From Candidatus Latescibacterota bacterium (GTDB taxonomy: Bacteria > Latescibacterota > UBA2968 > GCA-2709665): a DNA stretch of 64,000 nt. The stretch spans positions 3,680,001 through 3,744,000 of the forward strand of contig OZ244937.1 of the NCBI GenBank assembly GCA_965222075.1, read 5' to 3'. The translations under genes were made by a program, and so were the position numbers. Below, one piece after another: positions 1 through 9,212 of this stretch. Each line of letters begins with the position of its first letter. The stretch's first letter is position 1. The notes beneath the pieces were generated by a model, which did not search any database, had not been told where the DNA came from, and worked only from the letters and a program-made list of their open reading frames with translations.

Positions 1-218
1 CCGCGGGCCTTGGGATAACGGCCCAGCAGGGCGGTGGACAGGGCACCTCCTCCACATCCGAGATCCAGGAAGTTCAGGATCTGCCTATTGCTGGCGGAAA
101 TCACACGCAGCATGATGTCCAGCTGTGTTTCGGCCTGAGGGATTGCCGCCCGGACGCCGGTCAGGTATTTGTTTGTGAGCTGGGAAGATTGCCAGGCACG
201 GTCTTTTCGCTGCGCCAT
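1..218 (-). CDS. Class I SAM-dependent methyltransferase (5' part; runs off window)
   Basis: Not in the ORF track. Manual translation from ATG at 218: MAQRKDRAWQSSQLTNKYLTGVRAAIPQAETQLDIMLRVISASNRQILNFLDLGCGGGALSTALLGRYPKAR. SAM motif I LDLGCGGG; RBS AAGGAG upstream. Confidence 0.85.
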   Translation of the reverse strand, partial: MAQRKDRAWQSSQLTNKYLTGVRAAIPQAETQLDIMLRVISASNRQILNFLDLGCGGGALSTALLGRYPKAR

Positions 219-246
219 CAAAACTCCTTGAAGTGTAGAGGCCAAT

Positions 247-284
247 AAAGAAAACCCGCCATCGAGTGGACTCAATGGCGGGTT
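247..284 (-). terminator. Intrinsic terminator (attenuator) upstream of the methyltransferase
   Basis: AACCCGCCAUUGAG-UCCA-CUCGAUGGCGGGUU followed by UUCUUU on the minus strand, about 30 nt before the ATG at 218. Confidence 0.8.
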
Positions 285-307
285 GCTGATGTTTTTCGTT
301 TGCGCTG

Positions 308-439
308 CTATACCATGATCCGCCACGGAGTCCCATTATTATTGACCGAATTAAGGTCTACTACAGGGCGTACGACGTCATTTACGCTGCCCCATAGCGT
401 TCGATTGAGATCCAGGGACCTGTGGCCGATGGTGTTCAT
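308..439 (-). CDS. Putative attenuator leader peptide (43 aa, Val/Asn-rich)
   Basis: MNTIGHRSLDLNRTLWGSVNDVVRPVVDLNSVNNNGTPWRIMV*; 7 Val and 7 Asn; AGGA upstream. Its 3' end carries a segment complementary to the terminator 5' arm. Confidence 0.6.
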   Translation of the reverse strand: MNTIGHRSLDLNRTLWGSVNDVVRPVVDLNSVNNNGTPWRIMV

Positions 440-481
440 GAAATTTGTCCTACTTGAAGTTTCGGCGATTGAATTCACGAA

Positions 482-510
482 AAGATAGATGGTTGCCCGT
501 GTGATGTCAA
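482..510 (-). promoter_or_regulatory. Sigma70-type promoter for the leader/methyltransferase transcript
   Basis: TTGACA (510-505), 17 bp spacer, TATCTT (487-482). Confidence 0.7.
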
Positions 511-525
511 GGTATTTTCAGGTTC

Positions 526-975
526 CTATCCGTCTGTTCTGCCGCCGCGGCCGGGTCTCCGGCCCCTTTGGAAGCGCTCACCGGCACGCAGTTTGTCCCG
601 CTGCTCCGGGGTCAGGAGCTGGTTGACCTTGAGGCGGTGGTCGACCCGGGTTTCCAGGATAAGGGAAAGGGCCTGGTTGACTTTGGCGATCCGGGTTTTG
701 ACTTCGGCAGGGTCGGGATTGTCCTGGCGCGTGATGGCATGGAGGTCCAGACGGGCGATTTTCAGGTCGGCCTCGAGGCGCGCCATGCGTTTGGCGTTGT
801 TGAGACGCAGGGACTTCAGTTTCTCCCGCTGTTCCGCCGTCAGGTCCAGCGCTTCCATCACGGCCTGCTGGCGGTGCGCCCTTCGGTCTTTTCGCCCACG
901 CCGCGCGTCCACATCGGCAACGGTCCAGACAACCGCTGCGACGGCGATCAGTGATATCAGACTTCGCGCTTTCAT
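526..975 (-). CDS. Spy/CpxP-family periplasmic chaperone (LTxxQ motif)
   Basis: Signal peptide; LDLTAEQ and LLTPEQ motifs; helical and basic. Confidence 0.8.
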   Translation of the reverse strand: MKARSLISLIAVAAVVWTVADVDARRGRKDRRAHRQQAVMEALDLTAEQREKLKSLRLNNAKRMARLEADLKIARLDLHAITRQDNPDPAEVKTRIAKVNQALSLILETRVDHRLKVNQLLTPEQRDKLRAGERFQRGRRPGRGGRTDG

Positions 976-1055
976 GGTGGTCTCCCCTTTCTGTTATTGA
1001 AGGTTGAATATTGCCAGAATTGACTATTGGAAAATCTTCAACACCTCTCCTGTGG

Positions 1056-1490
1056 TCATGGCGGCCGGCCCCTCGGTGAGGGGCCTCGCATCCAGTGGCG
1101 CGCGAACTGGGAGAATGTTTTGTCGTATTCCTTCTGCTGTTCGGACGTGAGGATCTCCCGGATTTTCGACCGCGTGGCGGTCAACAGGTCTTTCATCCCT
1201 TTTCTGATCTCTTTGCGCTGCGCCATCATCTGTTCACGGCTTTCGTCTAAGATCCGTTTGACTTTTCGCTCCTGCTCCGGGGTGAGGTCCAGGTGTCGGG
1301 TAAACCGATGGATCAGTCTTTCCTGAGAGCGGGGGCCTCTGAATGAGGGACGACGAGAGAAAAAGGCCTTCGGAGGACGCCCCCGGCCAAGCAGCACCCA
1401 GCGCTCGACGGTCGCTCCGCACACCGCGCCGAGCAGGAAAAGCCCCAGGATGAGCAGCACGGCTTTTGATCTGGAAGAGAGAGAGAGCAT
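1056..1490 (-). CDS. Spy/CpxP-like membrane-anchored periplasmic protein
   Basis: N-terminal TM helix; LDLTPEQ and ILTSEQ motifs. Confidence 0.7.
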   Translation of the reverse strand: MLSLSSRSKAVLLILGLFLLGAVCGATVERWVLLGRGRPPKAFFSRRPSFRGPRSQERLIHRFTRHLDLTPEQERKVKRILDESREQMMAQRKEIRKGMKDLLTATRSKIREILTSEQQKEYDKTFSQFARHWMRGPSPRGRPP

Positions 1491-1493
1491 GGG

Positions 1494-1964
1494 TTACCTC
1501 GGCTGCGATGACGGTTCGGCAACAGAACCGGTCAGGAGAAGGATGTCGTCGCGAGAGAGTTCGGTGTCGTTCAGAACCAGTTCTTCGGGGCCTTCCCACT
1601 GCGCCTTGAGGTAGTCCTCCAGTGTTACGGTGGGATCGTCGCCGTTGAGGCTGCCCATTACGGCCAGCAGCAGCACTGCGGCCGCGGCCAGGAAGGGGAC
1701 CAGCCGCACCCCGGCCCACTCGAAGTGCCCCCAGAAGAGGATGACCTTCTCAGCCCGGATACGCTCGGCAACCCCGTCCCAGAGGCCGGGCGAGGGGTCC
1801 TTGAACCTGCATTTGACCGCGTCCTGGATGCGCCTGAGGTAGGCCAGTTCCTCACCGCAGTCCGTGCAGAGGGCGAGGTGGGCCTCAATCTGGCGTACCT
1901 CACCTTCTGTAAGGTTGTCATCCAAATAGGGTAAGAGGCGTTCTTTGACGTGGGTCTCGTTCAT
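1494..1964 (-). CDS. Zinc-finger (zf-HC2) anti-sigma factor
   Basis: HLALCTDC (HxxxCxxC) plus one TM helix; ATG at 1964 overlaps the sigma stop codon (ATGA). Confidence 0.85.
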   Translation of the reverse strand: MNETHVKERLLPYLDDNLTEGEVRQIEAHLALCTDCGEELAYLRRIQDAVKCRFKDPSPGLWDGVAERIRAEKVILFWGHFEWAGVRLVPFLAAAAVLLLAVMGSLNGDDPTVTLEDYLKAQWEGPEELVLNDTELSRDDILLLTGSVAEPSSQPR

Positions 1965-2551
1965 GCCGGTTCCCCCCCAGTCCATTCGGTGTAGATCGGC
2001 CGCAGCAGGTCTCTCAGGTGCGCCCGTGCCCGCGAGAGCCGGGATTTGACCGTGCCGACGGAACAGTTCAGCGCATCGGCGATTTCGTCCTGCGACAGCC
2101 CTTCGATGTCTTTGAGCACGACCACCGCGCGGTGGTCGGGTGAGAGGCTATTGAGTACGGCCTGGATGCTTTCTTGCAGTTCAGTCCGTTCCAGGTCATT
2201 TTCGGGGTGCCGGGTTTCAAAGAGACGTTCGGGCGAGATCTTTCTGGATTCCACGAGGGCTTCCAGAGAGACACCATCGGGCCGGCGGCGTTCCTTCTGG
2301 GCTGCATTGAGACAGGTGTTTACAGCAATGCGATAGAGCCATGTGTAGAATCCGGATTCCGCCCGAAAGTCCGACAGGGCCTGATAGGCCCGAAAAAAGG
2401 CTTCCTGGGCCGCATCCCGGGCGGCCTCCCGGTCACCCAAGATGGAACAGGCCAGGGTGTAAATCCGTCCCTCGTAACGTTCCACCAGTTTCCGGAACGC
2501 CTGGAGATCCCCCTTCTGACACCGTCTGACCAGTTTCAGGTCTTCGTCCAT
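1961..2551 (-). CDS. ECF RNA polymerase sigma factor
   Basis: Region 2 (DAAQEAF, FYTWLYRIAVN) and region 4 (GLSQDEIA...GTVKSRLSRAR). Confidence 0.95.
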   Translation of the reverse strand: MDEDLKLVRRCQKGDLQAFRKLVERYEGRIYTLACSILGDREAARDAAQEAFFRAYQALSDFRAESGFYTWLYRIAVNTCLNAAQKERRRPDGVSLEALVESRKISPERLFETRHPENDLERTELQESIQAVLNSLSPDHRAVVVLKDIEGLSQDEIADALNCSVGTVKSRLSRARAHLRDLLRPIYTEWTGGEPA

Positions 2552-2680
2552 TCAGGCTCCCGGAGGTAATCGGTAGTCAGTCCTCAGTAAACCGAAAGCA
2601 ACCACGGATGGACTACGGATAAAGGGATCAAAAGATGAGGACTGAAGGCTGGCGGCCAGGTTTCGGTGTTTCTAATATCT

Positions 2681-2708
2681 TAGACAGCAGGTGGCTTGTA
2701 GACGTTCC
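2681..2708 (-). promoter_or_regulatory. Putative ECF-type autoregulatory promoter
   Basis: GGAAC-18 nt-GTCTA upstream of the ECF gene, directly after the ilvB terminator. Confidence 0.55.
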
Positions 2709-2717
2709 AACCGGATC

Positions 2718-2750
2718 AAAAAAAAAGGGTGTCGCTTGTAGGCGACACCC
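2718..2750 (-). terminator. Intrinsic terminator of ilvB
   Basis: GGGTGTCGC/GCGACACCC 9-bp stem plus 9 U on the minus strand. Confidence 0.9.
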
Positions 2751-2776
2751 GGTAGCGTCGGTTGTTTTGCGGGTTT

Positions 2777-4555
2777 CTATTCGGTGATGATGTCCGCAAA
2801 GGTCTTTCCGGAGGGGATCATGGGCAGCACGTGCTCCTGATAGGGCACGATGACGTCAAGGAGGTAAGGCCCCGGTGTTTGGATCATACGCTCCAGAGCA
2901 GCGGGCAGGTCCTTTTTATGTACCACCTGCTCGGCGGGGATGCGGAATCCGCCGGCGATTTTGACAAAGTCGGGATGAAAGCCTTTCCCTTCCGGATCTC
3001 CGATGAAGGTATGCCCCCTGTTGCTTTCGTACAATATATCTTCCCACTGGACCACCATGCCCAGGTGCTGGTTGTTCAGGATCATTGTCTTCACCGGAAT
3101 CTTTTCGGCGTAGAGGGTGGCCAGTTCCTGGACGTTCATGACAAAGCTGCCGTCCCCGTCGATGTCGATCACCAGGGCGTCGGGCCTGGCCATTTGCGCA
3201 CCCAGGGCCGCAGGCAGACCAAATCCCATTGCCCCAAGGCCGCCGGAGGTGAGCCAGTTGCGGGGTTCGTCAAAAAGGTAATACTGTGCCGCCCACATCT
3301 GGTGCTGGCCCACGCCTGTGGTGATGATGGCCTTTCCCTTTGTCAGTCTGTAGAGCAGGTCGATGGCATACTGCGGCAGGATTTCGTCTTTCAGGTCTTT
3401 GTATCTCATGGGGTGTTTTTTGCGCCAGGTGTCCAGTTCGGCGTGCCAGGCGCTGTAGTCGCCCGGTTCGACCAGGCCGTTGAGGTCTTCTAAGGCGTAC
3501 TTGACGTCGCTAACAACCGAGATATGGGCCTCTTTGTTTTTGTTGATTTCCGAGGGGTCAATGTCGATATGTACGATCTTTCCATGCTTGCAAAATTCTT
3601 CGAGCTTTCCGGTCACGCGGTCGTCGAACCGGACGCCCATGGCCAGCAGGAGGTCAGCGTGGTTGATGGCGTAGTTGGCATAAACGGTGCCGTGCATGCC
3701 CACCATCCGGAGCGAGAGGGGATCGTTTTCCGGGAAGACGCCCAATCCCATCAGGGTCTGCACCACCGGGATGTGGGTTTTCCTGACCAGTTCGCGGAGT
3801 TCATCAGCACCCCCAGAGGAGACGACGCCTCCTCCAACGTAGAGGACGGGGCGTTTGGACTCCCGAATGGCCTGCGCCACGACTTGAATCTCTTCCCGGC
3901 CGGCCCGCACGTGTGGGTTGTAGCTGCGGATCGCAACCTGGTCTGGATAGATGGGCACGGTGTAGCCCTGCTGGACGTCTTTGGGGACGTCGATCAGAAC
4001 CGGCCCGGGGCGTCCGGTATTTGCGATGTAGAAGGCCTCTTTGACGATTCTTGGGATGTTATCGATGTGATCCACCAGGAAGTTATGTTTTGTAATCTGG
4101 CGGGTGACCTCAATAATGGGTGTCTCCTGAAAGGCGTCTCCCCCCATGAGGTGGGTTGGGACCTGGCCCGTGATGGCGACAACAGGCACGGAGTCCATTT
4201 TGGCATCTGCCAGCCCGGTTACCAGGTTGGTAGCCCCTGGCCCTGAGGTGGCGATGCAGACGCCCACCTTGCCGGATGCCTTGGCATAGCCCTCTGCGGC
4301 GAAGATTTCGCCCTGTTCGTGCCGGCAGAGCACACACCGGATGTTGGACCGGGTGATCGCCTGGTGGATTTCCATGCTGGCCCCGCCCGGGTATCCGAAG
4401 ACCAGATCAACGCCTTGCCTCGCCAGGGCTTCCACCAGGATGTCGGCGCCTTTTACCGGTTCTGCAGACGGTTGGGGAGGGGCCTGGGACATCGCTACCC
4501 GCTCTGCGCGCCCGTTGTCTTTCAGGGCGTCTACGGCCTCTGGTTTGTTTGCCAT
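2777..4555 (-). CDS. ilvB: Acetolactate synthase, large (catalytic) subunit
   Basis: [22 protein letters not shown] motif GDGSFVMN...[19 protein letters not shown]. Confidence 0.95.
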
Positions 4556-4610
4556 CGGTTTTTCCTCCTCATGTCAAGTCTTTTCCTCTTTGTGCGGTAT
4601 TCCCACCTCC

Positions 4611-5375
4611 TTACCCCTTCTCCAACGCCCGAATTCGATCCCGGAGTTTGGCCGCTTTTTCAAACTCCTCTTTTTCAATGGCCTCTGTCAGCTCTTTTTG
4701 GAGCCGCTCCGACCGGCTGAGGGGTCGTTTTTTTGCGATTTCCGCTTCCAGCTCCTTGAGCGCCTGCTGGGATCGCTTTTTTTCCATGTCGAATTCCTCT
4801 GCGCCCACATCCTCTAAGTTCTCGATTTCCTCCAGCGCCTCGCGGATGATGTCCAGGGCCGAGTCGTAATTCTCGTTCTGGACGTTGATCATGACCCGGG
4901 CGACGGCGTGAATTCTGAGGATGTAGGGCCACCACCGTTCCAGGTTTACCCTGTCTTCTTCGTGTTCTGCATGCTGGTTGACAAACCGGAAGACGTCCAT
5001 GTTCCGTTCGGTATCCCGGATCACCCGGTTGTAATCCTGAATTTGGAGGAGAAAGACGTAGCGCTCGTAGAGCCTCCTGCTTTCATCGAAGATCTCTGCA
5101 CAGGCCTCCCGATTGAGCGTAAACCTGCTGTCGGTGTCCCGCTTGGCGGTATGCTTCTGGAGGACATCTTTATAAAAATCAAGGGCAAAGGTCCGGTCGT
5201 GGGGTCTTTCTCCGTCCGGCCTTCCGTCGAGTTCCATCTGGAGGATGCCCTGGAACGCCCCCTGGTCCACCCTGACCTGGATTTTTTCCGCTCCGTCGAA
5301 GTCGATGACCTTGCGGATGCTGTTTTGCGCGTCGTAGGGCCAGGTTTTTAAAATACGTCCGATGTCTTCCGGCAT
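4611..5375 (-). CDS. UvrB/UvrC-motif-containing protein
   Basis: C-terminal UVR motif LTEAIEKEEFEKAAKLRDRI; N-terminal GILQMELDGRPDG segment. Confidence 0.7.
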   Translation of the reverse strand: MPEDIGRILKTWPYDAQNSIRKVIDFDGAEKIQVRVDQGAFQGILQMELDGRPDGERPHDRTFALDFYKDVLQKHTAKRDTDSRFTLNREACAEIFDESRRLYERYVFLLQIQDYNRVIRDTERNMDVFRFVNQHAEHEEDRVNLERWWPYILRIHAVARVMINVQNENYDSALDIIREALEEIENLEDVGAEEFDMEKKRSQQALKELEAEIAKKRPLSRSERLQKELTEAIEKEEFEKAAKLRDRIRALEKG

Positions 5376-5692: not shown

Positions 5693-7003
5693 ATGGAGAT
5701 GCTGGCGAGGTTTTTCCGGTTTGAGGCGCTGGGGACGGACTGGCGCACGGAGGTGATGGGGGGAACGACGACGTTTGTTACGATGGCCTATATCGTGGCG
5801 GTAAATCCGGGGATTCTGGCCAAGGCGCTGGGACGGGAGCTGTTTCCGGAACTGCTGTTTGCCACCTGCGTATCGGCGGTGGTAGCCACGTTGATTATGG
5901 GGATTGCGGCGAATTACCCCTTTGCACTGGCGCCGGGGATGGGGCTGAATGCCTTTTTCGTCACGGTCGTTCTGGAAATGGGGGTGCGGTGGGACCTGGC
6001 CCTGGGGGTGGTGCTGGCGTCCGGGATTCTGTTTACGCTGCTGGCGCTGATGCGGGTGCGGGAGGCGATTATCAACGCGGTGCCCGAGGCGCTCAAGCAT
6101 GCCACCGCAGCGGGCATCGGGCTGTTTATTGCGTTTATCGGGTTGAAGTACGCCGGGGTGGTAGCTGCCGACCCGGTTACGCTGGTGGGCCTGGGCGAGT
6201 TGCGGACCGGGCCGGTGGGGCTGGCGCTTCTGGGGGTGGCGGGCATTGGGGTGCTGATGGTTCGGGGGGTGAAGGGGGCGATTCTGCTGGGGGTGATCGG
6301 AGTGTCAGCACTGGGGATGATTTTGGGAATAACGCCGCCGCCGGAGGGGATGTTCAGCCTGCCGGCCTGGCCGAAACATCTGTTTGGGGCGGCGGTGGTG
6401 AATCTGCCTGTGGCGTTCGACGTGGGGTTGATCGGGGTGGTGTTTGCGTTTCTTTTCGTGGATCTGTTCGATACGATGGGCACGCTGGTGGGGGTGTCCC
6501 AGCGGGCGGGGTTCTTAGATACGGCAGGGCACCTGCCCCGGGCGAATCGGGCGCTACTGGCCGATTCGTTGGGCACCGTGGTGGGGGCGATTTTCGGGAC
6601 GTCGCCGGTGACGACCTATATCGAGAGCGCGTCGGGGGTTTCGGAGGGGGCGCGGTCGGGGTTTGCCAGCGTGGTGACCGGGCTGTTCTTCTTGGCAGCG
6701 CTTTTTCTGACACCGATCGTGAAGGCGATTCCCGACTTTGCGACGGCGCCCGCGCTGATTGTGGTAGGGGTGATGATGATGGCGTCGGTGGCGCGGATAA
6801 AGTGGGAAGATATTTCAGACGCGCTGCCGGCGTTTTTAACGGTGGTTGCGATTCCGCTGACGTTCAACATTGCCAACGGGGTGGCGGTCGGGTTTGTGGC
6901 GTATCCGATTGTGAAGCGACTGGGGGGGAAGGGAGGAGACGTGCACCCGCTGGTGGATCTGCTGGCGGTGATTTTTATCGCCCGATATCTGTTTATGGAT
7001 TGA
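5693..7003 (+). CDS. NCS2/AzgA-family nucleobase (purine) permease
   Basis: TTFVTMAYI, APGMGLNAFF, DLFDTMGT, TTYIESASG; many TM helices. Confidence 0.92.
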   Translation: MEMLARFFRFEALGTDWRTEVMGGTTTFVTMAYIVAVNPGILAKALGRELFPELLFATCVSAVVATLIMGIAANYPFALAPGMGLNAFFVTVVLEMGVRWDLALGVVLASGILFTLLALMRVREAIINAVPEALKHATAAGIGLFIAFIGLKYAGVVAADPVTLVGLGELRTGPVGLALLGVAGIGVLMVRGVKGAILLGVIGVSALGMILGITPPPEGMFSLPAWPKHLFGAAVVNLPVAFDVGLIGVVFAFLFVDLFDTMGTLVGVSQRAGFLDTAGHLPRANRALLADSLGTVVGAIFGTSPVTTYIESASGVSEGARSGFASVVTGLFFLAALFLTPIVKAIPDFATAPALIVVGVMMMASVARIKWEDISDALPAFLTVVAIPLTFNIANGVAVGFVAYPIVKRLGGKGGDVHPLVDLLAVIFIARYLFMD

Positions 7004-7169
7004 ACCCCCCGCCCACCCCCGTTATTGAGGATGGAAGATGAGAGATCCTGTACAAAAAATGTAAAGGCTTGCTCGCATCCCGTCAAGTTATAGATTGCAG
7101 GTAGACGAAAAGGAAAAAGTAAAAAACACCACCGGAACAGACGGCGTCTGAAGAAGAAAGGCAGGGGCC

Positions 7170-9212
7170 ATGCGGATCGGGATCGATATTGGAGGGACGT
7201 TTACGGATGTTGCGGCGGTTTGGGGAAACGGGCAGGTGGACGTTTACAAGCTGCCTTCCACGCCGGACGACTACGGGCGGGCGGTTGTGGAGGGGGTGCG
7301 CCGGATTATCGATGCGACGGGGGTGGACGGAGCGGAGGTGGCGGAGGTGATTCACGGCACGACGGTGGCGGCCAATGCGATTTTGAGCGGTACGGGCGCC
7401 CGTACCGGGCTGATTACGACCCGTGGGTTTCGGGACGTGCTGGAGATCGGGCGGCTGCGGATGCCCAGGCTTTACGACCTTTCCTGGGAGAAGCCTCCGC
7501 CGCTGGTGCCCAGGCGGCTGAGGCTGGAGGTGACCGAACGGATTGCGGCGGACGGGAGGGTGCAGACGCCCTTGGACGAGGCGGAAGTCCAGGCTGCTGT
7601 GGACTACCTGAAGGCCGAGGGGGTGGCGTCGGTTGCCGTGTGTCTGCTCAATGCCTATGTGAATCCGGTTCACGAAGCGCAGATTGGCGAGGCGCTCCGG
7701 GGCGCGGGGGACTGGACGGTGAGTTTGTCTTTTGAGGTGCTGCCCGAGATCCGGGAGTACGAGCGGACCTCTACAGCCGTGGTCAACGCCTATGTGCTGC
7801 CGGTGGTGCAGAGCTATTTGCGCGGGCTTCGGGACCACCTTTGCGAGTTGGGGGTAGACGCGCCGCTGCGGATGATGCAGTCCGCAGGCGGGGTTACGGA
7901 TGCGCAGACAGCGGCCGAACGGCCGGTGCAGATTATCGAATCGGGGCCGGCGGCGGGTGTGGTTGCTGCTGCTGCGCTGGGGCGGCGCATCGGATGCCCG
8001 GACCTGATTGCGTTCGATATGGGGGGCACGACGGCCAAGGCCGCGCTGGTTGAGGGGGGGCAAATCCCCCGTGCGACGGACTACGAGGTGGGCGGGGGGA
8101 TTTCGCTGTCGGGGCGTTTGATGGGCGGGGGAGGCTACCCCATCCGGGTGCCGTGTGTGGACTTGGCGGAGATCGGAGCAGGTGGGGGCAGCCTTCTGTG
8201 CGTGGATGCGGGGTGGGCGCTGAGGGTGGGCCCCAAGAGCGCAGGCGTCGATCCGGGGCCGGTGTGTTACACTCGGGGCGGAACCCAGCCTACGCTGACG
8301 GACGCCAACCTGCTGCTGGGATATCTGAACCCCGACGGGCTGGCCGGAGGAACGATTCCCTTAGATCTGGAGGCGGCGCGGCGGTGTGTTACCGATGCGG
8401 TTGCCCGGCCGATGGGCCTTTCGGTTGAGGAGGCTGCGCTGGGGGCGCACCGGATTGCCGGGGCGCTGATGGTGCGGGCAGTACGGGCGGTTTCGGCCGA
8501 GCGGGGGAGGGACCCCCGGCAGTACCACCTGCTCGCGTTTGGGGGCAGCGGGCCGCTTCACGCGGCGGGGATGGCGCGAAGTTTAGAGATTCCCCGGATA
8601 CTGGTTCCGGCCGCGCCGGGCCTGTTCTGCGCGACCGGGCTTCTGGCCGCCGGGCTGCAGTACGATCTGGTTCGCACCTGCCTGAAGCGGATCGATACGC
8701 TCGGCGCAGCCGATTTTGAGACCGCCTTCGCAGAGATGGGGGAGGAGGCCGGCCGGATGCTGTCGGGGGCCAGGCTGGAGCGCAGCGCCGATTTGCGATA
8801 TGTGGGCCAGTCCTACGAACTGGGCATTCCGGTTCACGAGGGGGCAACGGAGGCCGACCTGCCGACGGAGCTGAAGGCCGCGTTTGAGACAGAGCACGAA
8901 CGGACCTACGGGCACCGGGCGGAAAGCGACCCGGTTGAAGTGGTGGCGCTTCGCCTGCGCGCGAGCCTCCCCGCGCCGGACCTGCCGCTGCCGCAGGCGG
9001 TTGCATCTGGAGATAAGGGCCGTACCCGGTCCGCCTATTTTGGGGCCTCCCACGGCTGGATCGACACGCCCGTTCTGGGGCGGGGGGATCTTCTCTCCGA
9101 GCCTGCGGAGGGACCTCTTATTGTTGAGGATTACGATTCGACCACGCTGGTTCCGCCCGACGCAACAGGATGTCTGGACGCGTGGGGGAATATTGTGATG
9201 GAGATGGCGTAG
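7170..9212 (+). CDS. Hydantoinase/oxoprolinase subunit A (HyuA-like)
   Basis: DIGGTFTD, HGTTVAANA, ESGPAAG, DMGGTT, GAGGGS, AFGGSGPLH. Confidence 0.9.
   Translation: MRIGIDIGGTFTDVAAVWGNGQVDVYKLPSTPDDYGRAVVEGVRRIIDATGVDGAEVAEVIHGTTVAANAILSGTGARTGLITTRGFRDVLEIGRLRMPRLYDLSWEKPPPLVPRRLRLEVTERIAADGRVQTPLDEAEVQAAVDYLKAEGVASVAVCLLNAYVNPVHEAQIGEALRGAGDWTVSLSFEVLPEIREYERTSTAVVNAYVLPVVQSYLRGLRDHLCELGVDAPLRMMQSAGGVTDAQTAAERPVQIIESGPAAGVVAAAALGRRIGCPDLIAFDMGGTTAKAALVEGGQIPRATDYEVGGGISLSGRLMGGGGYPIRVPCVDLAEIGAGGGSLLCVDAGWALRVGPKSAGVDPGPVCYTRGGTQPTLTDANLLLGYLNPDGLAGGTIPLDLEAARRCVTDAVARPMGLSVEEAALGAHRIAGALMVRAVRAVSAERGRDPRQYHLLAFGGSGPLHAAGMARSLEIPRILVPAAPGLFCATGLLAAGLQYDLVRTCLKRIDTLGAADFETAFAEMGEEAGRMLSGARLERSADLRYVGQSYELGIPVHEGATEADLPTELKAAFETEHERTYGHRAESDPVEVVALRLRASLPAPDLPLPQAVASGDKGRTRSAYFGASHGWIDTPVLGRGDLLSEPAEGPLIVEDYDSTTLVPPDATGCLDAWGNIVMEMA

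Follow-up and report, generated by a model that had tools for sequence, protein, structure and literature searches.

Leader-peptide attenuation in front of aminoacyl-tRNA synthetase genes is exemplified by the pheST attenuator of Escherichia coli, which contains the pheM leader peptide. In the same species, the ilvBN leader (ivbL) is rich in Val, and the leader of the thr operon reads two amino acids, Thr and Ile. To our knowledge, nearly all documented classical attenuation is from Proteobacteria, a few Gram-positive groups contributing predictions, and very few cases concern synthetase genes. The element described here lies on the minus strand of a 64,000-nucleotide stretch of DNA, hereafter the window, from a Candidatus Latescibacterota bacterium. 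The source genome (G000) is one 5.36-Mb contig, OZ244937.1, and the window is its positions 3,680,001–3,744,000. Between window positions 510 and 244, a promoter, a short upstream open reading frame (uORF) rich in Val and Asn codons and an intrinsic terminator precede a methyltransferase gene. In relatives, the same leader heads genes for a second valyl-tRNA synthetase (ValRS), valS2, and for a non-discriminating aspartyl-tRNA synthetase (AspRS), aspS2. The element is most probably a classical ribosome-mediated transcription attenuator. The mechanism itself is known; the element adds a member in the uncultured Latescibacterota.

A comparative-genomics paper (PMC1262725) names pheST of gamma-proteobacteria as the known synthetase attenuator, predicts classical attenuators for trpS2 and leuS in Streptomyces, and gives T-box riboswitches as the usual RNA control of aminoacyl-tRNA synthetase genes in Firmicutes. 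Like pheST, the locus combines an antiterminator, an intrinsic terminator and a short leader ORF with an excess of cognate codons, all ahead of synthetase genes. However, its targets are an accessory ValRS and a non-discriminating AspRS, two codon types are mixed in one leader, a second attenuator lies inside the operon, the host belongs to an uncultured phylum, and there is no sequence similarity between the two. The Streptomyces cases are likewise comparative-genomics predictions for synthetase genes outside Proteobacteria, one of them a second copy (trpS2), although the amino acids there are Trp and Leu. T-box elements resemble the locus in that uncharged tRNA leads to terminator readthrough before a synthetase gene, on the same type of terminator/antiterminator platform. 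Yet, sensing here would proceed through a translated ORF rather than by the RNA binding tRNA itself. Assignment to the T-box or another catalogued leader family was considered and rejected, as Rfam gave no match up to an E-value of 10 in window 1–3000 and none up to an E-value of 1 at six valS2 loci.

The ilvBN and thr leaders offer a further likeness in being Val-rich and two-amino-acid leaders, respectively, and a paralogue of the present leader sits before ilvB in the sister genome G001. Unlike them, this leader has its control codons dispersed, one or two at a time, with no long runs, and in the window ilvB falls outside its control; no homology to these enterobacterial leaders is shown or expected. 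A full-text literature search, which left most subscription journals outside it, returned no attenuator for valS or aspS, none with Asn codons, and nothing on Latescibacterota.

Anatomy, conservation and covariation of the leader

The promoter, 43-codon uORF, terminator and antiterminator pairing that the sequence-only reading had described were found by direct reading on the minus strand, with all coordinates correct. The promoter consists of a −35 element TTGACA (510–505) and a −10 element TATCTT (487–482) separated by a 17-nt spacer, with 10 of 12 consensus matches; transcription would start near 475. The uORF (308–439) runs from the ATG at 439–437 to the TAG at 310–308, and its peptide contains 7 Val (5 GUA), 7 Asn (6 AAU) and 3 Asp. 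An AGGA at 448–451, 8 nt ahead of the start codon, is a candidate Shine-Dalgarno sequence and a hint only, being weaker or missing in relatives. Segment 1 (415–441), which contains the start codon, is the 5′ strand of a predicted anti-antiterminator (1:2) helix. A central hairpin (362–396) covers codons 15–26 and holds the conserved GUA Val codons and an invariant stretch, GUACGCCCUGUA; its energy is −9.6 to −15.6 kcal/mol in the close copies defined below, and it may serve as a pause site or a spacer. Segment 2, GGACUCCGUGGCGG (333–320), the 5′ strand of the antiterminator, falls within codons 36–40 and ends 10 nt ahead of the stop codon. It pairs at 13 of 14 positions (12 Watson-Crick, 1 G-U, 1 C-U mismatch) with segment 3, CCGCCAUUGAGUCC (281–268), which forms the 5′ arm and loop of the terminator and is thus a partner of both segment 2 and segment 4. 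The terminator (284–253, U tract to 244) has a 14-bp stem, a 4-nt loop and a hairpin energy of −24.8 kcal/mol. It begins 23 nt past the uORF stop, and its stem ends 35 nt before the methyltransferase ATG.

BLASTN located the leader in 7 of 60 relatives at 71–86% identity, the G001 copy being 86% identical. The near relatives were deposited as Candidatus Latescibacterota metagenome-assembled genomes, one of them being labelled Gemmatimonadota. These seven copies and that of the source genome are the 8 close copies of alignment A1; an eighth, diverged relative copy in G004 makes 9. A scan of genome contigs added no relative to the 7 found by BLASTN, and a degenerate terminator pattern had 0 matches among metagenome contigs. 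Across A1, neither the −35 core nor the T-A...T of the −10 varies, and the promoter of G004 is arranged alike (TTGACT-17-TATCTT). Start, stop and frame of the uORF are kept in every copy, with 41–43 codons and a sole indel of 6 nt; in G004 it has 43 codons from a GTG start or, by script, 53 codons from an ATG. Frame 0 is open in 8/8 close copies, while the +1 and +2 frames hold 1–6 stops. Both the uORF and the antiterminator pairing are conserved in relatives; their absence there would, by the sequence-only reading, have told against an attenuator. Variable columns at codon positions 1, 2 and 3 number 24, 23 and 18 of 43, with no third-position excess, a pattern that points to a translated sequence without protein-level selection. 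Except for a single U-to-G change in G021, GUACGCCCUGUA is invariant in the 9 genomes, synonymous sites included. An in-frame GTG at 478 also lies upstream of the uORF; in a manual count on A1 its frame is lost in G018, and a scripted check found an in-frame upstream start only in G002, G020 and G021.

The leader as a whole stands out more than its separate parts. By itself, the promoter match is at chance (1 found vs. 0.7 ± 0.8 in shuffles), as is the number of terminator-like sites (4 vs. 3.2 ± 1.8), although none of the others is nearly as long as this one. The predicted fold of the 241-nt leader is better than those of 200/200 shuffles (z = −3.4). Segment 2 is the best or near-best partner of the terminator 5′ arm when compared with about 570–3250 control windows per locus; in the source genome, 4 of 1070 control windows pair equally well, and these appear to overlap segment 2 itself. 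At least 6 Val together with at least 4 Asn occur in just 3 of the 4911 genome ATG-ORFs of 38–48 codons, the uORF among them. Val makes up 6–7 of the 41–43 residues in the close copies (genome 7.8%), about a 2-fold enrichment, and Asn makes up 4–7 (genome 2.8%), a 4–6 fold enrichment in all 8. GUA provides 3–5 of the leader Val codons; genome-wide it is the rarest Val codon (9.9%), and it matches the genome’s one tRNA-Val(UAC) gene.

Alignment of the leaders, which had been suggested as a check, shows that single codons are conserved at set positions: Val codons 19, 23 and 26, all GUA, and Asn codons 30 and 33, the latter two being retained in 7/9 copies by manual reading of the peptides. The AAU-AAU-AAU run put forward as a possible control site is not conserved, reading NNN, NNP, NSH, NNH, NNQ or DSQ among the 8 close copies. 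The triplet, specific to the source genome, reaches the edge of the codon range in which a stalled ribosome would leave the antiterminator free, and a ribosome on its last codon would, with the modelled footprint, mask the antiterminator strand. The alternative of Val or Asn sensing probably resolves into both: the relatives’ operon contains a second ValRS and a non-discriminating AspRS.

The same check extended to the helices, which covary over 35 modules of the wider family. These modules (alignment A5) were retained from 42 found by script; four near-identical ones from genus g6, one from family f3 and two judged false were dropped, and the G019 copy was not detected by the script, so that it lies outside the alignment. 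In the antiterminator, 75% of cells are paired and 9/16 pairs show double changes; pair 54:109, for example, is GC in 22 modules, AU in 11, GU in 2 and unpaired in 0. The antiterminator covariation score of 0.298 compares with 0.209 ± 0.014 in shuffles (0/500 reach it), a control that overstates significance for related sequences, and with at most 0.175 for slid partners, a control free of that weakness. In the terminator, double changes affect 8/12 pairs and 90.5% of cells are paired; its score of 0.428 exceeds the 0.234 of such shuffles (0/500 reach it). The shared-strand columns 109–113 covary with both partners and therefore carry the signature of two mutually exclusive helices. In the same columns, G004 already differs from the close copies: one antiterminator pair has gone from U-A to C-G, and two terminator pairs show double changes. 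For the second terminator of G106, the antiterminator partner was no better than random windows, although the fixed window used may miss the strand. Together with uORF conservation and a codon bias that tracks the downstream gene, this three-way covariation upholds the assignment to the trp/ilv/thr type of layout.

Genes behind the leader and the wider family

In these 8 relatives, which belong to the same family as the source genome, the general gene order is leader, methyltransferase or its remnant, valS2, second leader and aspS2. valS2 encodes an 814-aa valine-tRNA ligase of the PRK13208 type (NF009687, 955 bits), which is 31–33% identical to the housekeeping ValRS also encoded in each of these genomes. 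aspS2 encodes a 439-aa non-discriminating aspartate-tRNA(Asn) ligase (NF003483, 428 bits); enzymes of this kind make Asp-tRNA(Asn). The leader precedes valS2 in G021, G018, G016, G019, G020 and G002, and within family f1 (22 genomes) valS2 is confined to leader-bearing genomes. Farther behind the leader, aspS2 is present in G021, G020, G016, G004 and G001; in G019, the C-terminal part alone (residues 250–439) is found, and no aspS2 was detected at this locus in G018 or G002. Both synthetase genes are intact in G021. Because the leader heads these synthetase genes in relatives, valS2 and aspS2 are the likely ancestral targets. Judged by gene content, the Val/Asn leader would originally have headed an operon for ValRS2 and the enzyme loading tRNA-Asn by the indirect pathway. 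As side observations, valS2 is split into two overlapping frames in G020 (L036) and G002 (L038), both complete or near-complete assemblies, by either gene decay, as in G001 and G000, or long-read indel error. In G004 (L066, ~6900–8100), a 326-aa transposase-like ORF separates leader 1 from valS2 by ~1.3 kb.

The source genome has lost valS2, and aspS2 survives as scraps (residues 272–315 and 411–439) in a 675-nt gap past the methyltransferase. In G001, valS2 is reduced to a scrap and aspS2 is kept. Inspection of the genes left of the window, for which ilv/leu or asn/gat genes had been suggested, gave neither: the aspS2 scraps are followed, downstream of the gap, by an unrelated cluster of STAS, Na-H exchanger, response-regulator-SpoIIE and RsbW-like genes. 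The sole intact gene left behind the attenuator is that for a class I S-adenosylmethionine (SAM) methyltransferase (1–229, minus strand), with a ribosome-binding site (RBS) AAGGAG at 229–224, an ATG at 218–216 and a 246-aa product; it runs past the left end of the window. That a methyltransferase gene is the first behind the terminator was confirmed for the source genome, but it is not the ancestral target. The gene is intact in G001 and an internally deleted remnant in six genomes of genus g2. In family f2, a methyltransferase of 51% identity lies upstream of the aspS2 leader and beyond its control. The gene (also L002, 11478–12218) keeps synteny with aspS2 in two families, and on gene order it is best read as a passenger and not as the ancestral target.

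NCBIfam models did not name a function for the methyltransferase, as BioC, CpaM, PrmC, UbiE and CmoA scored 37–52 bits against cut-offs of 180–216. The source labels of its homologues are mixed (UbiE, tRNA (cmo5U34)-methyltransferase, generic). The modification cmo5U34 occurs in tRNA-Val(UAC), the reader of GUA, but with scores so far below the cut-offs this is only a lead.

The second leader was recognized in G021 as a short Asn/Asp-rich ORF between valS2 and aspS2, ending in ...PIQRRAGPNGS and followed by its own terminator; the unit is present also in G020, G016, G004 and G001. A promoter consensus scan flagged no site before it, although the same scan also missed leader 1’s own promoter in G021. 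Orthologues of valS2 in family f3 (53–56% identity) have one or two leader-terminator units in tandem ahead of them and no aspS2 within 1.4 kb; their leaders (9 units, 5 genomes) contain 2–9 Val and 0–2 Asn in 29–35 aa, one with GUA GUA GUA. Conversely, 18 loci with aspS2 and without valS2 were examined. All 14 of those in genus g6 have a 27–32 aa leader with the run NNNDDNN and 0 Val; the terminator follows the stop by 24–31 nt and leaves about 35 nt to aspS2. In G007 and G058, aspS2 has two tandem Asn-rich leaders each, and in G003 at least one (the model described below gives two matches); for the aspS2 of G054, no leader was found within 900 nt.

A covariance model built from the 35-module alignment matches in 113 of the 132 genomes of the class, many matches being terminator-only, and gives the leader described here as the sole full-length member in its own genome. 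The gene behind the leader was examined for 23 further full-length matches. Eight precede ilvB and have Val/Leu-rich peptides. Five precede asd and are rich in Lys or Thr, with 5 Lys in each peptide and Thr among the four commonest residues in 4/5. Four precede bacterial-type aspS and carry Asn/Asp runs, one precedes lysS and is Lys-rich, one precedes an ABC ATPase gene, and four precede genes without a family. As far as can be told from comparing sequences, these are homologous attenuators across this Latescibacterota class, their leaders apparently re-coded for the amino acid of the gene behind.

Several features of the family were noted on the side. Tandem attenuators are common, with two units before valS2 (f3), aspS2 (G007, G058) and ilvB (G056); the loci concerned are L067 (1040–1515), L070 (1010–1515), L093, L094 and L151. 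In G106, a deletion joined unit A to the terminator of unit B. The aspS2 leaders end in (I/Q)RRAGP followed by 1–4 residues (A5 columns 52–66; L037 9630–9737, L078 2833–2942, L093 2838–2946). Their codons vary, Ala being GCA, GCC, GCG or GCU and Gly being GGA, GGC, GGG or GGU; this synonymous variation under a constant Ala-Gly-Pro therefore suggests selection at the peptide level, beyond that on the RNA strand. The RRAGP end resembles the SecM arrest sequence, and it might keep a ribosome parked over the strand that forms the antiterminator.

Upstream of the leader, on the same strand, lie ilvB, an ECF sigma factor gene, a zf-HC2 anti-sigma factor gene and genes for two LTXXQ periplasmic proteins. 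The ECF sigma/zf-HC2 pair and the two LTXXQ/Spy-like proteins (526–2551, minus strand) form a conserved cluster of envelope-stress type. That ilvB lies 2.5 kb away on the same strand is correct, but a control link does not follow: ilvB is a separate unit with its own terminator (2750–2727). In G001, ilvB (L039 7880–8260, minus strand) has a complete homologous Val-rich leader with a TTGACA-17-TATTAT promoter, a 41-codon ORF and a terminator. In the window (4556–4625, minus strand), the −35 region CTTGACATGAGGA is kept and is followed directly by the ilvB start codon. About 290 nt holding the ilvB leader appear to have been deleted in the source genome, and ilvB would have lost its attenuator.

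The leader is covered at 100% identity by contigs from 4/4 sponge metatranscriptome runs of one study (291–459, 206–516, 271–668 and 190–402), two of which cross the terminator. No contig in the 4 runs covers window 1–190, the body of the methyltransferase gene, and the contigs are uninformative on termination. X13 and two other RNA runs gave next to no matching words.

Ribosome position and competing explanations

A number of observations weigh against the reading as a ribosome-mediated attenuator. Within the 8 close copies, the antiterminator lacks any covariation: the helices are conserved but invariant, the sequences being too alike. In the ‘B’ units of family f3, the antiterminator is no better than control windows, although the strand proper may lie outside the fixed window used. 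Val is only modestly enriched (per-peptide binomial p 0.04–0.11, with copies that are non-independent), and the control codons are scattered, unlike the runs of textbook leaders. Leader ORFs of the wider family were chosen by a heuristic (nearest ATG giving at least 20–25 codons), so that their compositions are approximate, and the wider-family alignment was assembled for this analysis. Misfits exist, leader A of G074 having only 2 Val and leader B of G073 having 3. The sole gene remaining behind the switch has no evident Val or Asn link, and the same holds for the genes farther downstream in the source genome. The RNA-library evidence consists of contigs, which are silent on ends, strand and level and may include DNA carry-over; moreover, contig 271–668 connects the last LTXXQ gene with the leader, which leaves room for transcripts that do not arise at the predicted promoter. 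The 1:2 helix is not clearly steadier than 2:3, and the ribosome-free cut transcript favours the antiterminator in 5/8 copies. Finally, when the full leader is folded with ribosome footprints, the terminator always wins at equilibrium.

Because equilibrium always favours the terminator, the switch must be kinetic, that is, decided before segment 4 exists. The helix energies in the 8 close copies are −18.6 to −25.9 kcal/mol for 2:3, −21.4 to −26.9 kcal/mol for 3:4 and −16 to −26 kcal/mol for 1:2. The kinetic model used a transcript cut before segment 4 and a 30-nt ribosome footprint, with ribosome-spanning pairs either barred or allowed. With such pairs barred, the antiterminator is predicted (P ~0.7–1.0) in 8/8 copies as long as the A site is no farther than codon 32–34; with such pairs allowed, it is predicted in 5/8. 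The conserved Val codons (19, 23 and 26) and Asn codons (30 and 33) all fall within this permissive stretch. A footprint placed from codon 33–35 to the stop blocks the antiterminator in 8/8 copies, and the spacing from segment 2 to the stop is similar across A5, a statement of geometry only. The 1:2 helix is predicted in the minimum free energy fold and in the RNAalifold consensus, with just 1 pair showing a double change, and may act as the anti-antiterminator.

Of the other explanations, the one that survives best is that the switch is a relic, mechanically intact and without an adaptive role in the source genome, its gating of the methyltransferase being an accident of gene loss. We regard this as a serious contender, if somewhat improbable. 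The source genome is without valS2, its aspS2 is reduced to two scraps behind the methyltransferase, and the sister genome G001 likewise is without an intact valS2. The methyltransferase itself is a remnant in 6 relatives and stands outside aspS2 leader control in f2, and the source genome has also lost the ilvB leader homologue that G001 retains. However, promoter, ORF, both helices and U tract are intact there at 86% identity to G001, the methyltransferase retains a good RBS after the terminator, RNA-library contigs span the leader, and the loss may be recent.

It is rather unlikely that a single amino acid is sensed, the leader being either a Val sensor paralogous to the ilvB leader with inherited Asn codons, or the reverse. 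The ilvB leader of G001 does have the same ...SVVQAVRPVEDLVGV... core, with Val or other residues at the Asn positions of leader 1. aspS2 has its own Asn/Asp leader in G021, G020, G016, G004 and G001, which would make Asn control by leader 1 dispensable, and the AAU run is not conserved. Against this stands the Asn content itself: the 4–6 fold enrichment is found in all 8 close copies, G004 has 6 Asn (manual, 43-codon GTG ORF) or 7 (script, 53-codon ATG ORF), and Asn codons 30 and 33 are kept in 7/9 copies, whereas the Val-only leaders of f3 have 0–2 Asn.

A different sensor on the same expression platform, namely a ligand- or tRNA-binding RNA or a nascent-peptide arrest responding to a small molecule, as in TnaC, is very improbable. 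The near-invariance of GUACGCCCUGUA at synonymous sites, the unusually good folding of the leader (z = −3.4) and the C-terminal Ala-Gly-Pro of the aspS2 leaders, kept through synonymous changes, could be so explained. However, no Rfam family, T-box included, was matched here or upstream of valS2 in the 6 other loci, and a ligand- or tRNA-binding RNA leaves the universal ORF and the gene-tracking amino-acid bias unexplained.

Equally hard to sustain is a small protein gene or dual-function small RNA with a functional 43-aa product and an incidental alternative pairing: the ORF with its start and stop is conserved in 9 genomes, the unit comes with a promoter-like site and a strong terminator, and the methyltransferase could have a separate promoter, yet the idea was dropped on the uORF substitution pattern with its missing third-position excess, and it also conflicts with the conserved residues falling on the RNA pairing strands, with homologous units before at least 5 gene types whose peptide composition shifts with the gene, with the three-way covariation and with the mere 35 nt from the terminator to the next gene start.

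Proposed operation of the switch and its meaning

Taken as a ribosome-mediated attenuator, the leader would be transcribed from the promoter at 510–482, with a ribosome reading the 43-codon leader behind the advancing RNA polymerase. When charged tRNA is ample, the ribosome would reach the stop codon at 310–308 and cover the 3′ half of segment 2. Segments 3 and 4 would then pair, the terminator at 284–253 would form, and transcription would stop before the first gene. When Val-tRNA is scarce, the ribosome would stall at codons 19, 22, 23, 26 and 27, mostly the rare GUA, and when Asn-tRNA is scarce, at codons 20, 30, 33 and 34, in both cases upstream of segment 2. With the ribosome so stalled, segment 2 would pair with newly made segment 3, blocking the terminator and allowing readthrough. 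The ancestral targets would have been valS2 and, through a second, Asn/Asp-coded attenuator, aspS2. After the loss of both synthetase genes, the switch in the source genome would gate the methyltransferase only.

A more elaborate proposal is possible, and we put it forward tentatively: a two-tier, two-signal operon switch derived from a duplicating, re-codable cassette. Leader 1, reading Val and Asn, would act as an OR gate for valS2-aspS2, opening upon shortage of either tRNA, and leader 2 would pass transcription on to aspS2 only upon Asn/Asp shortage. Since leader 1 is promoter-proximal to both synthetase genes and aspS2 has a gate of its own, such an OR-then-second gate would suit each enzyme. 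The cassette would exist in at least five specificities (Val, Val/Leu, Asn/Asp, Lys/Thr and Lys), the family would include what are, within the reach of the literature search, the first Asn/Asp-sensing leaders, reporting on the indirect Asn-tRNA pathway, and in the aspS2 branch the RRAGP end may act as an arrest peptide.

For annotation, the short ORF and hairpins at 244–510 are best labelled a regulatory leader instead of a gene, and a link to amino acids should not be presumed for the methyltransferase that follows. Within the window, the element is itself probably an orphan. Its interest lies in the family to which it belongs, a set of homologous attenuators from an uncultured phylum associated largely with sponges and corals. 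Their apparent natural re-coding from target to target would amount to a built-in experiment on the mechanism. The family would also extend the range of amino acids sensed through leader peptides to Asn/Asp, and with them to the indirect route by Asp-tRNA(Asn). Attenuation tied to second-copy ValRS and AspRS genes hints that these symbionts may raise their charging capacity on demand.

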